A DNA stretch of 13,122 nt from a virus: the UHGV virus genome UHGV-0105863; one strand, written 5' to 3'. Position numbers and translations under genes: made by a program. Below the pieces are notes generated by a model. The model made no database searches. It was not told where the DNA came from and saw only the letters and a program-made list of their open reading frames with translations. This document shows positions 51-13,072 of this stretch, piece after piece; the first letter of the stretch is position 1; every line of letters begins with the position of its first letter.

Positions 51-751
51 TGGTTGATTCATCACTGAATGATCCTGTCGTGGTTCAGGCTACGCGCCTT
101 GATGCTTCAATTTTGCCACGCAATATATTCAGCCAGTCTTACCTGCTGTATGTCATAAATCAGGGTGCTGATGTCGGTGCGATTGCTGGGAAGGCAAATC
201 AGGCTGGTCAGGGCGCTTATGATGCTCAAGTGAAAAACGATGAACAGGACGTCGAACTGGCAGATCACGATTCAAGAATCACCGCAAACACAAAAGCGAT
301 AAATCTCCTTGAGGTCAGGTTAACAACCGCCGAAGGGAAGATAGTCGTACTGCGTAGCGATGTTGATTACTTGCTGGATGAGGTTATCGATATTCAGGCG
401 CATCTGGTCACTGTTGACCAAAGACTGGATGACGTAGAAAACGATGTCTCTGGCATTAAGAGTGATTACGTATCGAAAACCGTAACCGAATTGCAGTCTC
501 TTGCGTCACCGCTGGATGTAAAAACATCATATTCAGTTGATGGAATTCAGGTTGTTGGAGCAAGAAATACCGGATGGACTGCAGCCACAGGTACGCCACT
601 TCTTGGCTCATTCAACGCTAACCAGTCATACACTGTCGGCACTACGTACACACAATCCGAAGTCGCAGCTCTCGCTACAGGTTTGCAGCAGGCGCGGCAG
701 CGTATTCTGGCGCTTGAAACGGCACTTAGATTACATGGGCTGATTGACTGA
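50..751 (+). CDS. Tail needle / plug protein, P22 gp26-like (233 aa)
   Basis: ORF of 233 aa. N-terminus [25 protein letters not shown]..., a central heptad-rich coiled coil, and a C-terminus ...LRLHGLID match my memory of P22 gp26 (also 233 aa). Position immediately upstream of the gp14/gp7/gp20/gp16 block agrees with P22 order. Confidence 0.88.
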
Positions 752-1206
752 TGATTACATTCAAACCAACGCGAAATATCGACCTGATCGAAGCAGTCGG
801 AAATCACCCTGACATTATTGCCGGGAGCAACAACGGCGATGGATACGACTACAAGCCTGAATTCCGTTACTTTGAGGTTAACGTGCACGGGCAGTTCGGC
901 GGAATTGTTTACTATCAGGAGATTCAGCCGCTAACCTTTGATTGCCACGCCATGTACCTGCCAGAGGTTCGTGGCTTCAGCAAGGAAATCGGGCTGGCGT
1001 TCTGGCGATACATTCTGACTAACACCACCGTTCAGTGCGTCACATCGTTCGCCGCACGCAAATTCCGCCACGGGCAGATTTACTGCGCAATGATTGGCCT
1101 TAAGCGTGTCGGAACCATCAAGAAATACTTTAAAGGCGTGGATGACGTGACGTTTTACAGCGCCACACGCGAAGAACTAATCGACTTCCTGAATCACGGG
1201 AGATAG
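751..1206 (+). CDS. gp14-like protein (151 aa), between needle and ejection proteins
   Basis: The ATG overlaps the gp26 stop (TGATG at 749-753), indicating translational coupling. Assignment is by synteny with P22 gene 14; I do not recognise a specific motif. Confidence 0.65.
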   Translation: MITFKPTRNIDLIEAVGNHPDIIAGSNNGDGYDYKPEFRYFEVNVHGQFGGIVYYQEIQPLTFDCHAMYLPEVRGFSKEIGLAFWRYILTNTTVQCVTSFAARKFRHGQIYCAMIGLKRVGTIKKYFKGVDDVTFYSATREELIDFLNHGR

Positions 1207-1208
1207 CC

Positions 1209-1898
1209 ATGTTATATGCATTTAAGCTGGGCAGAAAACTGCGCGGCGAGGAACCTTATTGCCATGAAAAAGGCGGGAAAGGTGGGTCCGATAAAAGCGC
1301 AAAGTATGCAGCAGAAGCTCAGAAGTATGCCGCAGACCTGCAAAATCAGCAGTTCAACACCATCATGAACAACCTGAAGCCGTTTACTCCTCTGGCTGAT
1401 AAGTATGTCGGCAGCCTCGAGAACTTATCGTCTCTGGAGGGGCAAGGTCAGGCACTTAACCAGTATTACAACTCTCAGCAGTATAAAGACCTTGCAGGTC
1501 AGGCTCGCTATCAGAGTCTGGCGGCAGCGGAAGCAACAGGTGGATTGGGTTCCACTGCAACCGGTAATCAGTTAGCAACAATCGCCCCAACGCTTGGCCA
1601 GCAATGGCTATCTGGACAAATGAACAACTACCAGAATCTGGCAAATATTGGTCTTGGCGCACTGCAAGGTCAGGCAAACGCCGGGCAAACATATGCCAAC
1701 AACATGAGTCAGATTTCACAGCAAAGCGCGGCGCTGGCTGCGGCAAACGCCAACCGACCGTCAGCATTGCAGCAGGGGGTTAGTGGTGCTGCATCCGGTG
1801 CGCTTTTGGGTGGTGGCATAGCCAGTGCTCTCGAGCTATCAACTCCGTGGGGTGCTGGTATCGGTGCTGGTCTTGGTCTTCTTGGCTCGTTGTTTTAA
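1209..1898 (+). CDS. Ejection (injection) protein, P22 gp7-like (229 aa)
   Basis: 229 aa, N-terminus MLYAFKLGRKLRGEE...KGGKGG, Q/N/G/A-rich body and a glycine-rich hydrophobic C-terminus, as in P22 gp7 (same length from memory). Start is 2 nt after the gp14 stop. Confidence 0.85.
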   Translation: MLYAFKLGRKLRGEEPYCHEKGGKGGSDKSAKYAAEAQKYAADLQNQQFNTIMNNLKPFTPLADKYVGSLENLSSLEGQGQALNQYYNSQQYKDLAGQARYQSLAAAEATGGLGSTATGNQLATIAPTLGQQWLSGQMNNYQNLANIGLGALQGQANAGQTYANNMSQISQQSAALAAANANRPSALQQGVSGAASGALLGGGIASALELSTPWGAGIGAGLGLLGSLF

Positions 1899-1908
1899 GG
1901 GGTAATCA

Positions 1909-3384
1909 ATGGCTACGTGGCAACAGGGTATTAATTCTGGTGGTTTTCTGGCTGGCATCGGTACGCAAAATGAGAATGCGCCAAAGGCAAGCGACATTAA
2001 CGCAACGCTTGGTCTGATCCGCGAAAACAATGAACTGGCTCGATCAGGTGCAAATAACGTTGGTCTGACCGCGTTACGTGGTCTGGCTGGAGTTGCTGAT
2101 ATTTACAATCAGGAACAGCAACAGAAAGCGATTAGTGCGTTCAATAAGGTTCACGCTGATGCATGGGCTTCTGGTGATCCATCGGGACTATTTAAGTTTG
2201 CCAAGGAAAATCCAGCGTTTGTTGCGCAGGCACAACAGGCGTTTTCCGGTCTTAATGAGCAGCAACGCAACGATATGGGCGATTTAGCCATGAGGGCTAA
2301 CGTCGCTCTTTCTCAGGGACCGGAAGCCTACAGTAAATTCATTACTGACAACAAGGACAGGTTAAATCGCGTTGGTGCTAATGCTGACTGGATGATTCAG
2401 ACAGGTATTCAGAATCCAGAGCAGCTATCACACATGCTGACTACTATGTCTCTCGGTGCACTTGGGCCAGAAAAGGCGTTTGCTGTTCAGGACAAGATGG
2501 CTGGTCGGGATATTGAGCGCGGCGAGTTGGCAGAGACAATCCGCAGCAATAAGGCTGGCGAGGCACTTCAGGCGAGAGGGCAGGATATTAGCCGAGCAAA
2601 TGCGTTAACGTCAGCATATGCACCAACAGCCGCAATGCAGAATTACAATCAGTATGCGCAAATGTTAAAGGCGGATCCAGAGGGGGCAGCGGCATTTGCG
2701 GCAGCGGCGGGAATTAATCCCAACGCTAAGAAATTACTTAAGGTTGAAACCAATCCTGATGGCTCGGTAACTAAGTATTACACCGATGGAAGCGAGGAAG
2801 CCGGAAAACTAAACCAACCTATATCTGGTGATGGTATTAAACCAATTAGCTTGCCACAAGCGCAAAGCATCATAGATAAGGCTAATGAGGGTTCCAAGAA
2901 GGCGGCAGGATTTGCTTTGCGATTAAAAGACTCAATGGACTCAATGAATCAGCTTAGTAAAAGCATTGACCCTAAGCGAGTTGCATTAATAAATCGCTCT
3001 CTTGGTGATGGGACTATTGCAAATTTAAGCCTATCACCAGCGGAGCAGCAATATATGGTAAATGCGAGAGACGCCTTGTATGCAATTTTGCGCCCAGAAA
3101 CAGGTGCAGCAATTACTCTGCCAGAGATGCAGGAGTATTCCAAAATGTACCTGCCTCAGCCTGGTGATTCCATGGCTGCTACTGAAACAAAAATGCGAAA
3201 AATGCAGGGTCAATATAACTCATTACGTGGTCAGTCTGGTCGCGTTTATGATGCTTTGGTGGTTTCAAGTGCTGCAAATAGTCAACAACAGAGCAATAGC
3301 CAACAACCGACAAATACCCAACAGCAGCAGAGTCAATCCGGATCATATACCTCAAAATCAGGCATTCAATTTACGGTGGAATGA
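1909..3384 (+). CDS. Ejection protein, P22 gp20-like (491 aa)
   Basis: Long ORF in the position of P22 gene 20, preceded by GGGG 6 nt upstream of the ATG. Ends in a Q/S/N-rich low-complexity tail. The stop overlaps the next gene's start. Confidence 0.8.
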
Positions 3385-5222
3385 TGAAAGTAACTGCAAA
3401 CGGTAAGACATTTACCTTCCCTGATGGTACGAGCACGGAAGATATTGGCACCGCCATTGATGAGTATTTTGCTGGTCAGGCTGTTCAGCAACAAACAGTT
3501 AATCAGGCCAATAATGAACCAGCACGTGAAGAACCATCATTGATGCAACAAGCTGGCGATTGGCTCACAGGTGGTCAAAGTGCAGGGCAAATTGCAGAGC
3601 AGGCTGGTCGTGGTCTGGTAAACATACCATTTGACGTATTGCAGGGCGGCGCAAGCCTGATTAATGCAATCAGTCAGGGGCTTGGTGGGCCAAAAGTATT
3701 GGATGATGTTTATCGTCCAGTAGACAGACCGACAGACCCCTACGCGCAAGCCGGTGAAACAATTGGTGGGTATTTAGTTCCAGGAGTTGGAACGGCAGGA
3801 AGCATGGCTATTGGATCACTGGCAGAGGCCGCAAATCAGAAAGGTGATTTCGCACAAAATGCAGCTAAAAATGCCGGAGTTAACCTTGCCGCTCAGGGTG
3901 TTCTTTCCGCAGCAGCAAAGGGAATAGGGCGTGGAATAACGGCTATAAAAGGTGATATTGCGCCAGAAGTGGCGAAGAAAATTGCCACATCAGAATCGAT
4001 GGGCGTGACACCAATGACATCTGATGTTATCCCGCCGAAAAACGCTTTCACTCGCGGACTTACTCAGGATGCTGAGGGGGCTTTGCTCGGGACAGGCTCA
4101 AAGCGAGCGGAGCAATATGCAACGCGTAGTAAGCTGGTAAGTAATTATTTTGACCGTTTTGGTGAGTACAACCCTGATGATGTGGTGAAATCTCTTACCA
4201 CCACGTTAAGGGGGCGGAAGGATGCCGCTGGCGCTGTTATCAATGACGTCACCAATAAAATGGGTAATGCCGCAGTTGATACCACAAATACCATGAATGC
4301 TCTGAATACAGCGATCGCAAGACAGGAACGGCTTGGGACGTCTGCCAATCAAAGCCTGCTTACATCCTTGCGTAACCTACGTGAAGAATTAGCAAACCCT
4401 GCAACTGATTTGGATGTTACGTTTGATCTCTTGCGTCAGCACAGAACAGCATTTAGATCTAATGTTCAGGGAGATGCTATGGTCTTCCCCAACCAGGCAA
4501 AAGCAGCTACCAATATGGTAGAGAATGCAATGTCAAAAGACCTTCGTAATGCAGTTGCTAAAAACCTCGGTGCATCAGACGCAGCAAAATACCTTAAAGC
4601 AAATTCCGATTATGCAAACGTTTATAATAAGGTGCTTAATAAAAACATTGCCAACAAGCTCAACAAGGCAAGCAGTGAAGCCAGTCCTGAACTTATAAAT
4701 ACCGTTGTATTAAGCAGAAAACCATCTGACGTGAAACGAATCTGGAGCGCACTGGATGATAAGGGGAAAGATGCTATGCGTGCAGCTTACGTCAGCAAAA
4801 TAGCGGAAAAGGCCGGGTACTCTCCAGCCAAGTTCATCACTGAAGTTAATAAGCTGAAATCTCAGTCAGGCGGTGAAATTTACAACACTATTTTTTCTGG
4901 AAAGCACATGAAAGAGCTTGATGCTCTTCATGAAGTTCTACAGCAAACAGCAAGGTCAGACACCGCAAATGTAGTAACTCAGACGGGGCAATCGCAAGCC
5001 AACAGGATAAGGACGATTGGCGCAACTGCGACCCTTGGCGTATCAATGGGGCTTGAGGCTGGTTTTGGTGCAATGATGCGCTTGTATGAGTCCAAAGCAG
5101 CAAGGAATGCTCTCTTACGTCTGGCAAACACTAAAACTGGAACGCCAGCCTATGAAAGAGCATTAAGTAACGCTGCAAATGCCATCAGACCGCTGCTTGC
5201 CACTGAGGCAACACAGCAGTGA
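3381..5222 (+). CDS. Ejection protein, P22 gp16-like (613 aa)
   Basis: ATGATG at 3381-3386 overlaps the gp20 stop TGA at 3382-3384. Size and position match P22 gp16 (about 609 aa from memory). Last gene of the ejection-protein block. Confidence 0.85.
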
Positions 5223-5239
5223 CTAAATGCCATGGATGG

Positions 5240-5428
5240 TTATTTCCTTAGCACATGAAACAATGTTTGCTTTAATTCCACCCATACAATTATGACCACT
5301 ATAGACAGACAAAAGAAACTGAATGCATTGGCATCACGATCGAAACCTTCTCCGGCACTAAATCCGTAAAAGGTCATAAAAAATATAAAAATTGCGCACT
5401 TTGCAACGTTTACAAATTTTTTCTTCAC
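5240..5428 (-). CDS. Small predicted membrane protein (62 aa, two hydrophobic segments), GTG start
   Basis: In-frame GTG at 5428-5426 (minus strand) is preceded by a perfect AGGAGG (plus 5434-5439), 5 nt upstream. Translation is VKKKFVNVAKCAIFIFFMTFYGFSAGEGFDRDANAFSFFCLSIVVIIVWVELKQTLFHVLRK. The 134-aa version in the ORF track would run antisense through the HExxH gene and has no RBS. Confidence 0.5.
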   Translation of the reverse strand: MKKKFVNVAKCAIFIFFMTFYGFSAGEGFDRDANAFSFFCLSIVVIIVWVELKQTLFHVLRK

Positions 5429-5458
5429 ACCAACCTCCTTAGTTTTGAGCAGGATACC

Positions 5459-5824
5459 ATGAAAAAAGTTAACATTGGAAACGTACCAAAGATGCTCGTT
5501 CCGCTCTTTGAGAGCGGTACAATTGTGTTTTGTAGAGACTTTCCAGAATGGCAACGCCTGCATCAAAAACTTGGTGTGGACGTGCAGGACTCGGATGCCA
5601 ACGGAGCGTCTCATACAATGAGCAGCGAGAATGGTGTTTTGCATGTGATAGGCGTGTTCAATGGCAAACTATCTACTATTGCCCATGAGTGCGCTCACAT
5701 GGCATTCGATATCTGCTCAAGGGTCGGTGTTGATGTTGAACCAGGAAGAGCCAACGAGACTTACTGCTACTTAATGAGCAGGCTTGTTGAGTTCTGCGAG
5801 CGACATATCAAAAAGCCGGAGTGA
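5459..5824 (+). CDS. HExxH zincin-like small protein (121 aa), putative metallopeptidase-fold
   Basis: ATG at 5459 with AGGA 4 nt upstream. Contains IAHECAHMAFDI (an HExxH motif) with glutamates about 20-25 residues downstream (VEPG, NETY) that could act as the third metal ligand. Stop lies inside a hairpin followed by a T-rich tract. Confidence 0.7.
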   Translation: MKKVNIGNVPKMLVPLFESGTIVFCRDFPEWQRLHQKLGVDVQDSDANGASHTMSSENGVLHVIGVFNGKLSTIAHECAHMAFDICSRVGVDVEPGRANETYCYLMSRLVEFCERHIKKPE

Positions 5825-5846
5825 CCCGGCTTGATTATTACTTTTT
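5808..5846. terminator. Hairpin between convergent genes, candidate bidirectional terminator
   Basis: AAGCCGG (5813-5819), 6-nt loop, CCGGCTT (5826-5832). Downstream on plus is GATTATTACTTTTTG. On minus only about 3-5 U follow the stem, so it is weaker in that direction. Confidence 0.45.
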
Positions 5847-6017
5847 GCTGTCTGGAGTTCGCTTATCTAATACCCAGCCATGACCTGGCTGTGTTGTTGG
5901 CGGAAGCCTTTCGTTGTCCTTGACGGTGGCAAAATTGTCTTTCTTACCGCCGCGCGGGCCAACCTCTTGGTATATTCCGCCGTTTTTTCCTGTGTTTTCA
6001 CCTGGTTTTTTCGCCAT
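5838..6017 (-). CDS. YjzC-like small protein (59 aa)
   Basis: ATG at 6017-6015 (minus) with GAGGT 7 nt upstream. MAKKPGENTGKNGGIYQEVGPRGGKKDNFATVKDNERLPPTTQPGHGWVL... matches my memory of the YjzC-like small protein family (G-x-Y-x-E-V-G ... P-x-T ... G-x-W). The MLRYI start at 6032 in the ORF track has no RBS. Confidence 0.6.
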   Translation of the reverse strand: MAKKPGENTGKNGGIYQEVGPRGGKKDNFATVKDNERLPPTTQPGHGWVLDKRTPDSKK

Positions 6018-6094
6018 GATATACCTCAACATACACCCGTTATTGGGCGATTAAATATTGATCTCATTTTATAAGTAGTCAATATGGCCCAGGC

Positions 6095-6126
6095 AAATGA
6101 AAAAATTAACCAGCCATCAGGCTGGT
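6095..6126 (-). terminator. Rho-independent terminator for the minus-strand secreted-protein gene
   Basis: ACCAGCC (6109-6115), loop ATCA, GGCTGGT (6120-6126). On the minus strand the hairpin is followed by UAAUUUUUUCAUUU. It sits directly after the stop codon at 6128-6130. Confidence 0.6.
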
Positions 6127-6127
6127 A

Positions 6128-6310
6128 TTAGTCACATTCTATTTCTTTTGTCGAGGTCCATACATAAGGATCTGAGCAAACAACCTCTCCATTTATCATG
6201 ACGTCATAGCCCATTAGATATGAGTTACCACCAACAACCTGGGCGGCGATGACGCTAATGCTGGCGGCGCAGGCTGCACCAAAAACGAAACCAATTAATA
6301 TATTTTTCAT
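6128..6310 (-). CDS. Small exported protein (60 aa) with N-terminal signal peptide and two Cys in the mature part
   Basis: [24 protein letters not shown] is a signal-peptide-like N-terminus without a canonical lipobox. The mature part of about 36 aa has Cys at positions 45 and 59. The gene has its own terminator. Confidence 0.55.
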
Positions 6311-6341
6311 TTTGATTCCAAATAGTTATAGGATGAAAGTT

Positions 6342-6527
6342 ATGACCATAGAAGAACGCCTGAACAACATTGAGTTGAACCAAACCTTGCTTGACCAGCG
6401 ACTTTCAGATCTTGAGCTTAAAGATCTAGATGCGCAAATATCAGAAGCAGAAGCCAAGCTCTCCAGCTTAAACCACCGTAAGAAGCAAATCCGCAACAGA
6501 ATTACTCAGGGACGCGGAAGCTGTTGA
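6342..6527 (+). CDS. Small coiled-coil protein (61 aa); alternative start at 6333
   Basis: AGGA at 6330-6333, 8 nt before the ATG at 6342. Translation MTIEERLNNIELNQTLLDQRLSDLELKDLDAQISEAEAKLSSLNHRKKQIRNRITQGRGSC has heptad-like L/I spacing. The 3' end overlaps orf69 convergently by 26 nt, so reality is uncertain. Confidence 0.4.
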   Translation: MTIEERLNNIELNQTLLDQRLSDLELKDLDAQISEAEAKLSSLNHRKKQIRNRITQGRGSC

Positions 6528-6711
6528 GGTGGGATGCTAGGTCTCTATCGTTAAAATCAAGGCTGCTAATCATTTCATTGTAAATGGCGTTTTTATCTTC
6601 CATTGGCAGTCTTGAGTAAACCAGACACAGAGCATATTTCAGGGAGTTTAGCTCTTTCTCTAGCTCTTCCTTGCTTGACGTTGTTGACTTAATAAACTGT
6701 TTTTTATTCAT
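6502..6711 (-). CDS. Hypothetical 69-aa protein, translationally coupled downstream of mnt
   Basis: Its ATG (plus 6711-6709) overlaps the mnt stop (ATGA), and AAGGA lies 6 nt upstream inside the mnt 3' end. Translation MNKKQFIKSTTSSKEELEKELNSLKYALCLVYSRLPMEDKNAIYNEMISSLDFNDRDLASHLNSFRVPE is acidic and helical. Confidence 0.6.
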   Translation of the reverse strand: MNKKQFIKSTTSSKEELEKELNSLKYALCLVYSRLPMEDKNAIYNEMISSLDFNDRDLASHLNSFRVPE

Positions 6712-6959
6712 TTTGCATCCTTACCATACATGGTCTTTAGCGTCTCAACATCGTGTTCAAGATCTATCAATCGTGATGCTATAGTTGCAAGGTCTAGTGC
6801 TTGAATGTGTTTATTTTTTTCGGTCCACGCTTCAAGTGCCGCGACCATCTCAGCATTTAATGAACGAGAATTAGCCTCAGCCAGTTCAATAAGACGTTCC
6901 TTTATCTCTACAGGAAGCCTCAGATTCACTTGAGGGTTTTTGTACTTACGATCAGACAT
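6708..6959 (-). CDS. mnt: Mnt-like ribbon-helix-helix repressor (83 aa), maintenance-of-lysogeny repressor of the immI region
   Basis: 83 aa, the same length as P22 Mnt. The N-terminal RHH signature NLRLPVEIKERLIELAEANSRSLNAEMVAALEAW is followed by a helical C-terminus. It is divergent from arc-ant, as in P22 immI, with AGGA 7 nt before the ATG. Confidence 0.85.
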   Translation of the reverse strand: MSDRKYKNPQVNLRLPVEIKERLIELAEANSRSLNAEMVAALEAWTEKNKHIQALDLATIASRLIDLEHDVETLKTMYGKDAK

Positions 6960-6987
6960 CGGCGCATCCTGAATAATTTTTTACCAC

Positions 6988-7016
6988 AGGATATGTAGGT
7001 ATCTATTGACTATCAA
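6988..7016 (-). promoter_or_regulatory. Candidate Pmnt (minus strand): TTGATA, 17-bp spacer, TATCCT
   Basis: The -35 is the reverse complement of plus 7011-7016 and the -10 is the reverse complement of plus 6988-6993. It lies about 20-30 nt upstream of the mnt ATG. The -10 is weak (4/6). Confidence 0.35.
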
Positions 7017-7025
7017 TGCGTACCT
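6997..7025. promoter_or_regulatory. Imperfect 29-bp palindrome AGGTA-n3-ATTGA-CTA-TCAAT-n3-TACCT, candidate repressor operator (Omnt-like)
   Basis: Read directly from the sequence. Centred at 7011, it covers the -35 of Pant and the -35 of the candidate Pmnt. The outer AGGT half-site recalls the P22 Omnt half-site (from memory). Confidence 0.4.
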
Positions 7026-7034
7026 AAATACTAT
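7006..7034 (+). promoter_or_regulatory. Pant-like sigma70 promoter: TTGACT, 17-bp spacer, TACTAT
   Basis: -35 at 7006-7011 and -10 at 7029-7034, about 30 nt upstream of the arc ATG. The -10 is flanked by two copies of ATGCGTACC (7016-7024 and 7037-7045). Confidence 0.55.
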
Positions 7035-7064
7035 GTATGCGTACCACATACAACGGAGGATGCA

Positions 7065-7205
7065 ATGAAGGTAAAAACACTGCGTATGCCAGAGAAGCTA
7101 GAAAAAATTCTTGAAGAAAAAGCAAAGGAAGAGTGTCGCTCATTCAGCGCAGAAGTAATTAAACGGGTGCTGGACAGCCTGAGGAGAGAGGGGATAACGG
7201 TGTGA
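7065..7205 (+). CDS. arc: Arc-like ribbon-helix-helix repressor (46 aa)
   Basis: GGAGG 6 nt upstream of the ATG at 7065. MKVKTLRMPEKLEKILEEKAKEECRSFSAEVIKRVLDSLRREGITV aligns by eye with P22 Arc (..RWPREVLDLVRKVAEENGRSVNSEIYQRVMESFKKEG..). It is below the 60-aa cutoff of the ORF track. The frame is intact. Confidence 0.8.
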   Translation: MKVKTLRMPEKLEKILEEKAKEECRSFSAEVIKRVLDSLRREGITV

Positions 7206-7227
7206 TTCGCTTGGATGCGGCAAAGAA

Positions 7228-7303
7228 ATCAAAACAGTGAAGCCCCAACTGCTGGAACAGTTAGGGCTTCGGTATCGTAAAACCACGCATAGGAATTAAC
7301 GAC
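7228..7303 (-). ncRNA. sar: sar-like small antisense RNA covering the ant ribosome-binding site and start codon
   Basis: A minus-strand promoter sits just inside ant, with a predicted start near plus 7303. The minus-strand terminator is a hairpin GAAGCCC/GGGCTTC (7239-7270, with inner stem AACTG/CAGTT) followed on the minus strand by ACUGUUUUGAUUUCUUU. Predicted length of about 70-75 nt matches P22 sar (about 69 nt from memory). Confidence 0.5.
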
Positions 7304-8227
7304 ATGAAAAGTATAGCAACAGCAGTATCTACTATCAATGTACCATTCCACGGCGCAGAGCTTTATGTTGTCAATCACAACGGCGAACCGTATACCCCAA
7401 TGAAACCTATCGTTGAGGGAATGGGGCTAGACTGGAAATCTCAACATAAGAAGATTTCTCAACGCTTCTCGAAGGGTATGGTGGAAATCACCATACCTTC
7501 TGCCGGTGGGGTGCAAGCCATGATTTGTATGGCTTTACGAAAATTGGCAGCTTGGTTGAACAGCATCAGTCCTAACAAAGTCCGCCCTGAAATCCGCGAC
7601 AAGGTAATCCAGTATCAGGAAGAGTGTGACGATGTGCTCTACGAGTACTGGACTAAAGGCCATGTAGTTAACCCACGCAAAGCTAAAAAGGCGTTGCCGG
7701 GTAAAATCACCACTGAACAGCAGGAAGCCATTAAACAACTCGTCATGAGTCGCGGTCAGTCTCTGCCAAAAGAAAAACAGGCGAAGGCGATGATCACCAT
7801 GTGGTCGTCACTGAAATCCCATTTTGGATGTTCGTACAAAGAAATCAGTGATGAGCAGTTTACCGAAGCACTGTCACTTGCTGCTCGCGTTCCGCTTGAA
7901 GGTGAGTTCATTGGCAAACAAGAGAAGAAAACCAACGAGCTTTCTGCAAAAGAAGCAAACAGCCTTGTATGGCTATGGGATTATGCCAACCGCTCACAGG
8001 CATTATTCCGCGAATTGTATCCGGCGCTAAAACAAATTCAATCGAACTATTCCGGCAGATGTCATGACTGCGGTTATGAGTTCTCCCGTATTATCGATAT
8101 GGCGAGAGACGTTTTAATCAATCACACACGAGATGTTGATATCAATGAGCCAGACGGACCAACGAATCTTTCCGCATGGATGAGACTTAAGAATAAAGAA
8201 TTACCTCCTTCAGTACATAACTACTGA
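7304..8227 (+). CDS. ant: Ant-like antirepressor (307 aa)
   Basis: Lies directly downstream of arc, as in P22 immI. Size is close to P22 Ant (about 300 aa). The N-terminal region resembles the phage antirepressor N-domain by memory. AGGA lies 9 nt before the ATG. Confidence 0.75.
   Translation: MKSIATAVSTINVPFHGAELYVVNHNGEPYTPMKPIVEGMGLDWKSQHKKISQRFSKGMVEITIPSAGGVQAMICMALRKLAAWLNSISPNKVRPEIRDKVIQYQEECDDVLYEYWTKGHVVNPRKAKKALPGKITTEQQEAIKQLVMSRGQSLPKEKQAKAMITMWSSLKSHFGCSYKEISDEQFTEALSLAARVPLEGEFIGKQEKKTNELSAKEANSLVWLWDYANRSQALFRELYPALKQIQSNYSGRCHDCGYEFSRIIDMARDVLINHTRDVDINEPDGPTNLSAWMRLKNKELPPSVHNY
7310..7338 (-). promoter_or_regulatory. Psar-like promoter on minus strand: TTGATA, 17-bp spacer, TATACT
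   Basis: The -35 is the reverse complement of plus 7333-7338 and the -10 is the reverse complement of plus 7310-7315. It is near-consensus and fires leftward across the ant start codon at 7304. Confidence 0.5.
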
Positions 8228-8245
8228 CAGATAACCAACGCAACG

Positions 8246-8270
8246 ACCCAGCTTCGGCTGGGTTTTTTTA
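8246..8270 (+). terminator. Rho-independent terminator after ant
   Basis: ACCCAGC (8246-8252), TTCG tetraloop, GCTGGGT (8257-8263), followed by seven T. A textbook intrinsic terminator. Confidence 0.8.
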
Positions 8271-8327
8271 TGCCAAAAATTCACCGTAGCCATGCTGCGG
8301 CCATTCCTTGTATCTGGAGCAAATCAA

Positions 8328-10673
8328 ATGACAGATTCAATAAATGCCAATGTTGTAGTGAGTATGCCTTCGCAACTCTTCACTATGGCTCGTTCTTTTA
8401 AAGCTGTAGCCAATGGCAAAATTTATATCGGTAAAATTGACACTGACCCGGTAAACCCTGAAAACCAGATTCAGGTTTATGTAGAGAACGAAGACGGTTC
8501 TCACGTTCCTGTTTCGCAACCAATCATCATTAACGCTGCTGGATATCCGGTATATAACGGACAGATTGCCAAGTTCGTTACTGTGCAAGGGCATTCTATG
8601 GCTGTTTATGATGCGTATGGTGCTCAGCAGTTCTATTTTCCTAATGTGCTAAAGTATGATCCAGATCAGTTTAGGCAGCAGCTTGCAGTAGTTGATAGCA
8701 ATGTATTGATTTCTGGTGTTCCAGCAAAAGATGTTGTAAATGCCAAAACTGGACGAGCACCAGTAGTTATGACTCGAAAAGTTACAGACCTTCTTCTTGA
8801 TGGTAAGGCTGGGTTGCGTAAAAACTTTGGTGCTGTAGGCGATGGTAGTCATGACGATACACAGGCATTTAATGATCTGTGGGATGCGCTTATGGATCCG
8901 ACATATAAACGCCGCGCAATAGAAACAGACGAGGTTGGTCTGCCATTTATGATACAAAAAGGCCCAGCACTTCTAATTGAAAATGGAACGTTTATTTACA
9001 ATGGGCCTGGTCTCAATATTGAAACATCAGATTCATTTGTATTTAACATATCAGGTGAGAGCAGTATTTCAACAAAGATACTTTTACCAGATGGAGTATA
9101 CCTATTCGATTTCGATAATAACCCTGTTCATGCATATCTAGGGAATATGTCAATTCATGGTGGTAAAGGTGCTGTTCGATACAAATCAAAAGAACGATCA
9201 ACTAACAGCATTCACCTTTTCGAAAATCTTCGCCTGTCGAGATACAAGGAGTGTGGCATAGGGAATAATTCAATCGATATGCCGTATTTCCGAGTGAAGG
9301 GATGCATGTTATACGGGGACCCAGCAAGCCAGACTATTGGTATTTGTGTCTCTGGTTACTCTGCTGGCGGCTTCATTGAGGACTGTGTTATCAGCGACAA
9401 TAGATATAATATAAAACTGGCAGTTGGTGATAATGGCGTGGAGCGTAATGGCCCTGCAACGCCTTTCTATGTCTGCAGGAACGACATGTACCGCACGGGG
9501 CGACGAGCGCCATCAGCATCGTATGACATATGGATTGAGCCTGGTGCTACTACCATCAACTCTGGGAGAGGTATTCAGATAATCCAAAATAAATTTGGGC
9601 AAGAAAACCTAATCGCACCAGATACTCATGTTTTGATCGCAGATGCTGCCGCTACAGGGAGCGGGTTAAATCTCAATGGAGATCGCGCTCATATAGAAAC
9701 ACAGTCAGTTGGTTTTGTGTCTGGCTTACGTTTCGAGGGGAATAACGTAAACTCAGCTAATAGTGGATATATTGCCCCTTTCATTCGCTCATTTACGCCA
9801 AACCTTGGAAATAACAAAATAAATGACCTTTATGACAATGACATGCCAGCAAGAATCATAGAGTTCGCGGGTGGCATAACCCAAAGTCAAATGACTAACC
9901 TTTCACGTACCAACGTCTTTAGTGCAGCCCAATGCATTGCGCTTCAGAAGGGTGTTGAACCTAAGTTGTTATCTAACCTTAATGATGTCTTCCGGCTTGA
10001 GGATCCTTTGGGGTTCTACGTCGGGCATCCTCAAGCTCAGGTTTTACCGTCAGGTTCTCAGCAGATTGGATTTGAATTGATCTACTCTGGGCCGACGTCG
10101 ACGATTGGGGTGAGTAACGCAACAAGATTATCGGTAAATAACTCATATGGAGGGATATCGGAAGCAACTGAAATCACAATGACCGCTTCTGATGGCGTGG
10201 CAGTTGCCACTGTTGTTGGCGGACTTGCTGGTAGGAAGCACTGGATTGATTTCGAGCTTAAGCGCGGGACAACAAACCCTGTTGGTTCTGTTGTTGTGGA
10301 GATAATGGATGCTTCCGGGTCAGTTCTCCAACTTCGTCGTATTATTTTAATAGACACTTTTCCACGCTGGCAGAAAGTCGCCATTCCTTATGTTCCAAAT
10401 GAAGACGGTAATATTGTAGTCAAATTCAGATCTAATCTTTATTCGGCTGGAACGGCAACTAACTTTATTGTCGGAAATCTCAATGTTTACAGGAATGAGG
10501 AGCGAGTCAATACAGGGCATAACTCAGGATTGAGGATGCAATGGAATCTACAACATACCGTAAGAGGTACAAGACACGAGTGGTATGACGCGTCAGGTAA
10601 TTTACGCTCCAAAAATGGGGTGCCGAGTGGGGATGCCGATGGGGTAATCATTAGCGCTAACCCAACATTGTAA
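8328..10673 (+). CDS. Tailspike protein (781 aa): P22-type head-binding N-terminal domain fused to a right-handed beta-helix receptor-binding domain
   Basis: Start taken at ATG 8328 ([12 protein letters not shown]...) with GGAG 8 nt upstream; the ORF-track start at 8292 adds 12 residues absent from P22 gp9. The first ~115 residues (..[34 protein letters not shown]...[14 protein letters not shown]......VLKYDPDQ) match P22 gp9 from memory. Downstream is unrelated and contains [19 protein letters not shown], a typical pectate-lyase-fold motif. Confidence 0.9.
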
Positions 10674-10736
10674 AAATTTGATCTTCGCATAGCTAGAAGT
10701 TACTGTATATAAAAACAGCATTGTGAGGTTATAGAC

Positions 10737-10976
10737 ATGATCAGACGCAACATAATTTCGGAGGCTTTCAGAGCCTCCATTTCTATAAATCCTAAAGGTT
10801 ATCAATACCTTTACACGCATTCTTTCATCTCCGAACTACAGAGGATGGGTATCAATTTCTCAGAAGAGGAGGCTAACAACTGGATATCGAGAGAGCAGAC
10901 TTACTTTGTTGACAAAACCACCGACCATAGCGAAAACCGCCTGTGGATGCTGGCCAATATGGGTAGGGTTCTCTGA
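10737..10976 (+). CDS. Hypothetical protein (79 aa) downstream of tailspike
   Basis: ATG with GAGG 9 nt upstream. No recognisable motif. Sits where P22 carries its conversion genes. Confidence 0.45.
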   Translation: MIRRNIISEAFRASISINPKGYQYLYTHSFISELQRMGINFSEEEANNWISREQTYFVDKTTDHSENRLWMLANMGRVL

Positions 10977-11905
10977 TGTGATTTCCATCACCGGCGTCCG
11001 ACTACGTCGAGCAGCTACTGTCCGTTAACTCGATATGCAATGTTGGTCCTAACACATTGTTGCTTGAAACCAGTGGTGGATATGCCGTGGTTGATGTCTC
11101 TCTGAAACTTAAGCAGAGATGTCAGGTGATGGTCTGCTATGAAGCACATAATCAGATAGCGAAGCTTATGGGGAAATCTTTGATAACGGAGGATGGAGAG
11201 GCGATCGAGGGAGAGGCCCTGGATGATGTCACCGTTGCCGTCGTGGTGACGCATATTATCGTGGATGTGAGAAGTGACAGCGTAGCAGTATAAGGCAGAC
11301 CCACAATCAGGGACTACCGATTTTGATTACTCCACCTTTTCATCAAGCCAATCTGCCCACCATTGCATCATTTCTCTGCATTTATCGTAGTTGATGCAAC
11401 ACTATCACACTGTAATAGCTTATTACTGGTTTGCAGACAGGTAGGCATGAACAGATACCTGCGCATGAAGACGGAACTAGTCCAGATGTGATATTTGTGG
11501 TGATCACATACATCATCAACGATGCTCGTTATGGTGAGTTTGATGACTACCCACTGAAGTGAAAATTGTGTTGTGTACCAAATTGCGTACCAAACTAAAA
11601 TCACAAATTATGAAACCCTTGTTCATGGCGGCTCTCAGGGGTGTTGCGCGTAATCGTGAAACAAAAAGGTAGATTGTTGCTTACCGTCATTCATCATTAG
11701 GTTAAATCCGTTATTTCTGCTGTCTGCCAGAGTATCAAATATCACCGTGCTAATCAGCTTTAGCGCGACAATTTGGCAGCGAGTGACAACAGATCATGTC
11801 AGATAAAAATGAGATAGTAGTCACATTTTCTTGCACTTTATTCCAGCCAGTTCATAAGTATTTCCGTAAAAAGAACAGCTATTTGAAACACCTGAGGGTT
11901 TGCTG

Positions 11906-13072
11906 TTGAAACGCCGTCTTATTATTGCTGCTTCTTTGTTCGTTTTTAATTTATCGTCTGGTTTTGCGGCGGAAAACATTCCTTTTTCACCTCAGCCTCC
12001 AGAGATTCATGCCGGGTCCTGGGTATTGATGGATTACACCACCGGTCAGATTCTCACTGCGGGTAATGAGCATCAACAGCGCAATCCCGCCAGCCTGACA
12101 AAGCTGATGACGGGCTATGTCGTGGATCGCGCTATCGATAGTCATCGCATTACGCCAGACGATATTGTCACCGTGGGGCGTGATGCGTGGGCGAAAGATA
12201 ATCCGGTGTTTGTCGGTTCTTCACTGATGTTTTTGAAAGAGGGCGATCGCGTATCGGTACGTGATTTAAGCCGAGGTTTAATTGTGGATTCCGGAAATGA
12301 CGCTTGTGTTGCTCTGGCTGACTATATTGCCGGTGGGCAACGGCAGTTTGTTGAAATGATGAACAACTATGCCGAGAAGCTGCATCTCAAGGATACGCAT
12401 TTTGAAACAGTGCATGGTCTGGATGCACCTGGCCAGCATAGCTCGGCTTATGATTTAGCCGTGCTTTCTCGCGCTATCATCCACGGCGAGCCCGAGTTTT
12501 ATCATATGTACAGTGAGAAAAGCCTCACCTGGAACGGTATCACCCAGCAAAACCGTAACGGGTTATTGTGGGATAAGACCATGAATGTTGACGGCCTGAA
12601 AACGGGCCATACTTCTGGTGCCGGGTTTAATCTTATTGCTTCGGCTGTAGACGGGCAGCGTCGCCTCATTGCAGTGGTAATGGGTGCTGACAGCGCAAAA
12701 GGTCGTGAGGAAGAGGCAAAAAAATTACTGCGTTGGGGGCAACAAAACTTTACTACGGTGCAAATTTTGCACCGTAGGAAAAAGGTCGGTACGGAACGCA
12801 TCTGGTATGGTGATAAAGAAAATATCGCCCTGGGAACGGAACAAGAGTTCTGGATGGTGCTACCGAAAGCCGAAATTCCACATATCAAAGCCAAATATAC
12901 CCTTGATGGTAAAGAGCTCACCGCGCCAATTAGCGCCCATCAGCGGGTAGGGGAAATTGAACTTTACGACCGTGATAAACAGGTGGCGCACTGGCCGCTG
13001 GTTACCCTGGAATCTGTCGGGGAAGGCAGCATGTTTTCTCGCCTGAGTGATTATTTCCACCATAAGGCCTGA
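11906..13072 (+). CDS. dacD: D-alanyl-D-alanine carboxypeptidase DacD (PBP6b), host chromosomal gene
   Basis: Start taken at TTG 11906 (MKRRLIIAASLFVFNLSSGFA signal peptide) with GAGGG 7 nt upstream, giving 388 aa; the ORF-track start at 11900 gives 390 aa. Contains the class A PBP motifs SLTK (SxxK), SGN and KTG. I recognise the sequence as enterobacterial DacD. Confidence 0.9.
   Translation: MKRRLIIAASLFVFNLSSGFAAENIPFSPQPPEIHAGSWVLMDYTTGQILTAGNEHQQRNPASLTKLMTGYVVDRAIDSHRITPDDIVTVGRDAWAKDNPVFVGSSLMFLKEGDRVSVRDLSRGLIVDSGNDACVALADYIAGGQRQFVEMMNNYAEKLHLKDTHFETVHGLDAPGQHSSAYDLAVLSRAIIHGEPEFYHMYSEKSLTWNGITQQNRNGLLWDKTMNVDGLKTGHTSGAGFNLIASAVDGQRRLIAVVMGADSAKGREEEAKKLLRWGQQNFTTVQILHRRKKVGTERIWYGDKENIALGTEQEFWMVLPKAEIPHIKAKYTLDGKELTAPISAHQRVGEIELYDRDKQVAHWPLVTLESVGEGSMFSRLSDYFHHKA

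Follow-up and report, generated by a model that had tools for sequence, protein, structure and literature searches.

orf69, a Small Gene Overlapping the End of mnt in P22-like Prophages, as Probable Prophage-Expressed Cargo of the ant Moron

Introduction

In phage lambda, the accessory genes rexA and rexB lie downstream of the repressor gene cI and are co-transcribed with it in the prophage. In P22-like phages, the region known as the ant moron, or immI, comprises mnt, arc, ant, and sar, to which P22 itself adds sieA, hkcC, and ORF59a (Villafane et al. 2008, PMC2629481). It is a variable region with several genes of unknown function, and an analogy of the rex type has also been drawn for genes 44/45 of phage epsilon34 (PMC2629481). 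Here, we consider orf69, a gene for a protein of 69 amino acids (aa) that follows mnt in a 13,122-nucleotide stretch of the virus genome UHGV-0105863 (the window), which represents the right end of a P22-like (Lederbergvirus) prophage together with the beginning of the host chromosome. Our reading, to which we assign a probability of about 0.6, places orf69 among the accessory genes of the known ant moron; it would be expressed in the prophage, from the mnt transcript.

Like the P22 ant moron, the locus lies between the DNA-transfer gene 16 and the tailspike gene, contains mnt, arc, ant, and sar, carries variable genes on the mnt strand, and has a mosaic content that is exchanged among related phages. 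The difference concerns the junction: ORF59a of P22 starts about 100 nt beyond the mnt stop codon without any overlap, whereas the cargo gene of the window is joined to mnt by a start/stop overlap, with a Shine–Dalgarno sequence inside mnt, and this arrangement is kept across genera. As with lambda rexA/rexB, the cargo is placed downstream of a maintenance repressor and would be expressed together with it from the prophage; in contrast to rex, it stands behind the secondary-immunity repressor Mnt rather than the main repressor C2 and encodes a single soluble protein.

Two isolated phages contain orf69, namely Salmonella phage vB_SemP_Emek, whose annotators themselves named the gene “orf69” and its neighbor “orf61”, and Escherichia phage Kapi1, where the two genes are Kapi1_062 and Kapi1_061. 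Their orf69 proteins are 97–99% and their orf61 proteins 100% identical to those of the window (PHROG 16466 and PHROG 7586, respectively), the two genes overlap convergently in the same manner, and all are annotated as hypothetical proteins. The phages differ from the window in what precedes orf69: in Emek, a 77-aa gene is placed between mnt and orf69, and the ATGA overlap is formed with this 77-aa gene, while Kapi1 possesses another Mnt allele, 40% identical to the one studied here.

orf69 as a Protein-Coding Gene

By its pattern of substitutions, orf69 (6502..6711, minus strand) is a genuine protein-coding gene under purifying selection. The copy from the window was aligned with those from Kapi1 and three diverged loci (L004, L005, and L007), and ten pairwise comparisons among copies with a synonymous divergence (dS) of 0.5–2 gave ratios of nonsynonymous to synonymous substitutions (dN/dS) of 0.05–0.14. 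The reading frame is intact in all 38 IMG/VR loci, i.e., viral contigs carrying orf69 that were collected by a single-protein scan, and the product matches the PHROG 16466 profile over its full length (E = 5.5e-51; residues 1–69 on profile positions 1–69 of 69). About 75 of 5426 complete E. coli genomes carry the gene. It might be objected that orf69 is short, contains no recognized domain, and appears in annotations only as a hypothetical protein, as would be expected for a chance reading frame or an annotation artefact in the mnt 3′ untranslated region. However, the substitutions follow a codon pattern even at dS up to about 2, the frame is open in all copies, homologues of only 33–50% identity keep a motif, and the structure prediction is confident; the probability of such an artefact is thus negligible, and the pattern of conservation already refutes it.

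The product appears to be a cytoplasmic protein. AlphaFold2, supplied with a 16-sequence alignment, predicts a three-helix bundle (helices 14–33, 37–48, and 53–65) with a mean predicted local distance difference test score of 82.7 and a disordered, Lys-rich N-terminus. The protein is hydrophilic overall (grand average of hydropathy, GRAVY, −0.65), and its sequence lacks any hydrophobic run of the length needed for a membrane helix or a signal peptide. The original prediction had described it as acidic and helical; the helical part agrees with the model, while the acidity turns out to be mild (isoelectric point 5.8, net charge about −1.4). Residues L24, L35, S50, D55, D57, and N63 are invariant throughout the family. 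No family match was obtained in Pfam, NCBIfam, or PADLOC, and a Foldseek search with the model retrieved nothing from PDB or BFVD; such structural matches as were obtained are generic helical ones. Marginal matches to eIF4A/DDX6 helices that appeared in a PDB sequence search were judged spurious.

Conservation of the mnt–orf69 Junction

The junction of orf69 with mnt (6708..6959, minus strand), which encodes an 83-aa ribbon-helix-helix (RHH) repressor of the Arc/Mnt family (Pfam Arc, E = 3.2e-10), was read directly from the sequence. The plus-strand TCAT at 6708..6711 is ATGA on the minus strand, where the orf69 start codon ATG (6711..6709) overlaps the mnt stop codon TGA (6710..6708). A Shine–Dalgarno sequence, TAAGGA, occupies 6718..6723 on the same strand, within the mnt codons for G-K-D and 6 nt before the ATG. 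Both features had been noted in the original prediction, and both are confirmed. The ATGA overlap is kept in 38 of 38 IMG/VR loci and is also found in L004, L005, L007, L011, L012, and L019–L022; AAGGA is retained in the same 38 loci and, in addition, in the distant orf69 subfamilies.

When 5.8 billion and 1.8 billion proteins were searched, relatives of orf69 turned up only in Enterobacterales, where three subfamilies can be distinguished: orf69 itself in E. coli/Salmonella, a form of 63–64 aa in Providencia/Proteus, and a form of 68–88 aa in Enterobacter/Rahnella. The profile search of 1.8 billion representatives yielded only three real distant relatives, the long matches P0047, P0050, and P0051 being discarded as repetitive junk; the second profile search (5.8 billion proteins) added a few more Enterobacterales homologues, none of them named. 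Together, PHROG 16466 and the two distant subfamilies make up a small, well-conserved, uncharacterized protein family.

In P22-like prophages of Proteus, Providencia, and Rahnella, a homologue of 33–50% identity stands behind mnt with the same 4-nt overlap and with AAGGA in the Mnt tail. The upstream Mnt proteins are diverse, with at least five allele types across all loci of the orf69 family. Four types, of 78, 82, 83, and 90 aa, occur in the IMG/VR loci, and the diverged loci add further types, among them an 84-aa P22-like type with a Repressor_Mnt C-terminal domain and an 87-aa type. Beside these further alleles, which occur in E. coli/metagenome, Providencia, Proteus, and Rahnella prophages, the overlap and AAGGA are likewise kept. 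Kapi1 provides a clear example, as its Mnt is merely 40% identical to that of the window, yet its orf69 is 98.6% identical. Since the junction recurs across genera and Mnt alleles, the tie of orf69 to the end of mnt is old and maintained rather than peculiar to this prophage.

A different setting is found in siphovirus prophages from Enterobacter and metagenomes (L013–L016 and L023), where a distant homologue of 71–88 aa occurs alone, on the opposite strand, and with no RHH gene adjacent to it. It is located in a 366-nt gap between a DUF6246 tail gene (tail chaperone-like) and the tape-measure gene, and it has its own GAGG ribosome site and a promoter-like sequence upstream. This gap is an unusual site for an inserted accessory gene.

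Interchangeable Genes behind mnt

Comparison of close relatives indicates that orf69 is exchangeable cargo and not an essential partner of Mnt. A mosaic junction lies in the mnt 3′ end at 6724..6748, its mnt side being homologous to CUS-3 and its orf69 side to Kapi1/Emek: CUS-3 homology extends from 6724 rightwards, Kapi1 homology reaches up to 6748, and that of Emek up to 6724. The left boundary of the module formed by orf61 and orf69 falls at 6326..6341, immediately before the ribosome site of orf61. The sequence ETLKTMYGKD is common to the tails of different Mnt alleles, and the codons GGT AAG GAT within this tail supply a Shine–Dalgarno sequence to whatever gene follows. Judging from these alignments, the mnt 3′ end behaves as a recombination socket for cargo genes.

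The slot is variously filled even where mnt is nearly the same. CUS-3, with a near-identical Mnt allele, holds a second mnt-like gene in it; E. coli 90-9280, with a near-identical mnt, has a gene for a 92-aa protein that reuses the same AAGGA; and in E. coli EC21Z-014 and phage S.Kent 1-2-1, the slot is occupied by a gene for a 105-aa signal-peptide protein with an ATGA overlap of its own. Among complete E. coli genomes, about 142 carry this mnt allele versus about 75 with orf69. The 77-aa gene between mnt and orf69 in Emek, which encodes a protein with two transmembrane segments, recurs in eight other loci; because the ATGA overlap and the K-D-A-K tail codons there belong to this intervening gene, the leader sequence travels with orf69.

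The original prediction was to count as refuted if close relatives with identical mnt lacked orf69, and CUS-3, 90-9280, and EC21Z-014, with the same or nearly the same Mnt allele, do lack it. Such absence marks orf69 as dispensable, interchangeable cargo rather than a partner of Mnt; it is not evidence that orf69 is unreal. Presence or absence at the same map position in close relatives, with P22 added to the three strains and phages just named as lacking the gene, is what characterizes a moron in the sense of Hendrix and Casjens. The homologue that had been proposed to be sought downstream of mnt in P22 does not exist. ORF59a of P22 was rejected as a candidate (BLASTP E = 0.53), and the P22 pid ORFan locus was dropped as an equivalent, the paper on this locus containing no mention of mnt, sieA, or ORF59a. 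The window has its own homologue of ORF59a at 5838..6032 on the minus strand (PHROG 3202). A promoter-like site precedes this gene at 6082..6054, and the hairpin at 5813..5832 is flanked by T-runs on either strand; it is therefore a small transcription unit of its own and not the P22 counterpart of orf69.

How such exchange might proceed can be outlined as follows. The conserved mnt 3′ end with its built-in ribosome-binding site would serve as a docking point at which homologous recombination swaps the downstream cargo, orf69 being one of at least four alternative cargo genes. This end of mnt is a recurrent cargo-swap junction and offers a simple handle for finding more prophage-expressed accessory genes. 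P22-like prophages are common in E. coli and Salmonella.

Expression and Possible Role of orf69

Co-transcription with mnt, expression in the lysogen, translational coupling, and a protein-binding role are what we infer for orf69, and its production in the established lysogen is suggested by position alone. A consensus scan detected no promoter-like or terminator-like site on the minus strand from the mnt start to 6311. Since the first terminator-like site on this strand, a hairpin with a T-run found by the same scan, lies at 6126..6109, the likely transcript comprises mnt, orf69, a region antisense to orf61, and orf60. According to this scheme, the mRNA initiated at Pmnt would carry mnt and orf69, run probably antisense across orf61 and through orf60, and end at the hairpin, and orf60 is probably its last gene. 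Ribosomes would start orf69 at TAAGGA either by termination–reinitiation at ATGA or by direct initiation; either route uses this mRNA, so orf69 should be made whenever mnt mRNA is made. Owing to this tie to the repressor mRNA of P22-like prophages, the expression context of orf69 is unusually clear.

The product would be soluble, with a mass of about 8 kDa, three helices, and a disordered N-terminus rich in Lys. As it has no enzymatic or DNA-binding signature, it most likely works by binding another protein. Our preferred guess, by analogy with other prophage-strand genes of the region such as sieA in P22, is an accessory function of the prophage, for example, interference with superinfection or modulation of a phage or host protein. 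The earlier suggestion of a helical accessory factor on the mnt transcript looks appropriate in the light of the model and the position, for a real gene tied to mnt. The papers on Kapi1, SieA, and epsilon34 contain no functional statement on orf69.

Several observations weigh against this scheme. The literature searched contains no transcript, ribosome-profiling, or proteomic evidence for orf69. In the prophage Gally of strain LF82, the one related prophage with RNA-seq data, which lacks orf69, mnt is near background in overnight LB culture and increases 40-fold in macrophages (PMC9928086); in view of these data, “made in every lysogen” may be too simple, and Pmnt activity may depend on conditions. 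The Gally transcriptome was set aside as direct evidence on orf69 expression, as the gene is missing there, and was used only as context for mnt. As to translational coupling, which the original prediction had taken for granted, the ATGA overlap permits it, but the RNA at the junction has no significant structure that would enforce it (z = −1.2), and independent initiation on the same mRNA at the strong Shine–Dalgarno sequence is equally possible. Consensus scanning and RNA structure tests together revealed neither a significant coupling-enforcing structure at the junction nor a terminator after orf69. Nor is coupling obligatory in the family: in a single Providencia prophage, mnt and the orf69 homologue are separated by a 92-aa gene, without overlap, and the siphovirus homologues initiate independently.

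Among other explanations, a type II toxin–antitoxin pair, with Mnt as the RHH antitoxin and orf69 as a new small toxin, is suggested by the architecture, since operons such as RelBE, ParDE, CcdAB, and FitAB resemble mnt–orf69 in consisting of small genes that overlap by 4 nt, with the RHH gene coming before the small one. RHH antitoxin families are also matched by Mnt, though weakly and below threshold (FitA-like, E = 4e-4; RelB-like, E = 0.003). These matches, however, fall below the curated cut-offs and reflect the common RHH fold. Mnt represses the ant promoter and is not known as an antitoxin, and orf69 has neither a toxin fold nor a toxin family in Pfam, NCBIfam, or PADLOC. Near-identical orf69 proteins (97–100%) stand beside four or five Mnt alleles that have just about 12 C-terminal residues in common, and in Proteus/Providencia, the same homologue accompanies two Mnt proteins with unrelated C-termini; with the same orf69 next to such differing tails, there is no co-varying toxin-binding domain. 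Moreover, homologues exist with no adjacent RHH gene, in the siphovirus prophages, or are parted from mnt by orf77 or orf92. Of four hallmarks of type II systems that were compared, gene order with overlap is the single one present, while a toxin family, an obligate antitoxin, and co-variation were not found. A toxin–antitoxin pair is therefore very improbable, and the original judgment that orf69 does not resemble RelE, ParE, or CcdB is upheld by the lack of a toxin family or fold, by the solitary homologues, and by the lack of co-variation.

It is rather unlikely, although far less so than a toxin, that orf69 is an accessory regulator of immI, for example, an inhibitor of Ant at the protein level or a modulator of Arc/Mnt, made stoichiometrically with Mnt. 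Every P22-like locus of the orf69 family that was examined has arc and ant (with the P22_AR_N domain) next to mnt, the tie of orf69 to mnt is kept across genera, and in LF82 Gally, mnt is present while arc, ant, and orf69 are all absent according to the gene table. On the other hand, P22, CUS-3, and many E. coli prophages have the mnt/ant circuit with no orf69, the gene is indifferent to the adjacent Mnt, Arc, and Ant alleles, its homologues occur alone within siphovirus tail gene clusters, and its co-occurrence with ant is confounded, since the gene adjoins mnt. We are similarly doubtful about a two-gene unit of orf69 and orf61, in which, for example, orf69 made in the lysogen neutralizes orf61, or the two genes exert mutual antisense control. 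Both genes are under purifying selection, and all 38 loci have an intact orf61 beside orf69. Providencia/Proteus show the same pair with overlapping 3′ ends, even though both proteins are only about 35–45% identical to those of the window, and the Pmnt transcript would be fully antisense to orf61. Yet about 130 complete E. coli genomes have orf61 and only about 75 have orf69, orf61 adjoins a different cargo gene (105-aa) in S.Kent 1-2-1 and EC21Z-014, and the Rahnella and siphovirus homologues of orf69 are unaccompanied by it. As the genes overlap, physical linkage could explain their co-occurrence, and from these comparisons orf61 is neighboring context rather than a necessary partner.

A broader proposal, speculative and with only a small chance of being right, is that orf69 is the founder of a family of small three-helix proteins of Enterobacterales temperate phages, made with Mnt and acting at the protein level. 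If that were true, orf69 might sequester an antirepressor or some other protein, early or late, whether of a superinfecting phage or of the resident one. The immI immunity would then gain a post-translational layer, or superinfection would be interfered with in a new way, and the Mnt tail, with the ribosome-binding site that it contains, would serve as a dedicated socket into which such factors are plugged. Returning to orf69 as a prophage-expressed accessory gene of the ant moron, the result is a modest one: it removes a tempting but wrong toxin–antitoxin annotation and overturns nothing known about immI.

Neighboring Genes and Organization of the Window

orf61 (6342..6527, plus strand, i.e., the strand of the late operon) encodes a 61-aa coiled-coil protein matching PHROG 7586 (E = 3.9e-44) and converges with orf69, their 3′ ends overlapping by 26 nt. 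Its dN/dS values are 0.05–0.15. A distant version of 60 aa (MTIEERL...) accompanies the Providencia/Proteus homologues of orf69. In some genomes, the RefSeq name of orf61 is “hemolysin XhlA family protein”. An assignment to XhlA was rejected, as the PF10779 match, at 14.1 bits (E = 0.056), is far below the cut-off of 34.7 and the protein is hydrophilic throughout (GRAVY −0.86), with no membrane segment.

The consensus scan revealed no promoter-like site for orf61 itself in the window, and, given that the shared module starts only about 16 nt before its ATG, the gene is probably transcribed by read-through. Late transcripts of P22 are thought to traverse this region to the tailspike gene (PMC2629481). 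In several prophages, orf61 is situated directly behind gene 16 and a 139-aa gene on the same strand. This 139-aa plus-strand gene, which precedes orf61 in prophages of the NRG 857C type, is represented in Gally by LF82_139, one of the most transcribed Gally genes (PMC9928086), which suggests rightward transcription active in lysogens just upstream of the orf61 position in these relatives.

orf60 (6128..6310, minus strand) encodes a 60-aa protein with a hydrophobic N-terminus (PHROG 37095, E = 5.6e-46), and its counterpart Kapi1_060 is annotated as a signal peptide. In many E. coli prophages, homology to the window ends at about 6326..6341, before orf60, and other genes occupy this place in the loci examined.

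The immunity region to the right of orf69 corresponds to that of P22. A Pmnt-like promoter (TTGATA, a 17-nt spacer, and TATCCT) is predicted at 6988..7016 on the minus strand and overlaps a divergent Pant-like promoter at 7006..7034 on the plus strand, both being found by consensus scan; Pant and Pmnt of P22 are likewise divergent and overlapping. Downstream of Pant lie arc (7065..7205, plus strand), with a Pfam Arc match, and ant (7304..8227, plus strand), with matches to P22_AR_N and P22_AR_C, and between them the sar antisense RNA is recognized at 7236..7302 on the minus strand (Rfam RF00262, 71 bits, E = 4e-14). Arc of the window is 46 aa long versus 53 aa annotated for P22 arc. The locus thus has the P22 type of immI, i.e., a Mnt-type RHH repressor gene divergent from arc–ant with sar antisense RNA between the latter two, and the clear presence of sar makes the circuit look complete. 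Window Mnt is 32% identical to P22 Mnt, and at the DNA level, window mnt is 95% identical to that of CUS-3. Among sequenced phages, the nearest are CUS-3, HK620, Kapi1, and Emek, none of which matches more than a part of the window.

On the left, gene 16 (3381..5222, plus strand) is the last of the virion/DNA-transfer genes and is followed by the variable region and then immI. On the right, the tailspike gene (8292..10673, plus strand) is the last large phage gene, and a host gene for a dacC-like D-Ala-D-Ala carboxypeptidase occupies 11900..13072 on the plus strand (Pfam Peptidase_S11, E = 9e-105); the right prophage end (attR) is therefore expected within 10673–11900. Related prophages of LF82 and NRG 857C adjoin torT instead. 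Within the variable region, a 121-aa reading frame at 5459..5824 (plus strand) contains a HECAH (HExxH-like) motif and matches PHROG 1365 over its full length, and the last 62 residues of a 134-aa reading frame at 5240..5644 (minus strand) match PHROG 21338. The two frames (5240..5824) overlap on opposite strands, and both are kept in phage S.Kent 1-2-1.

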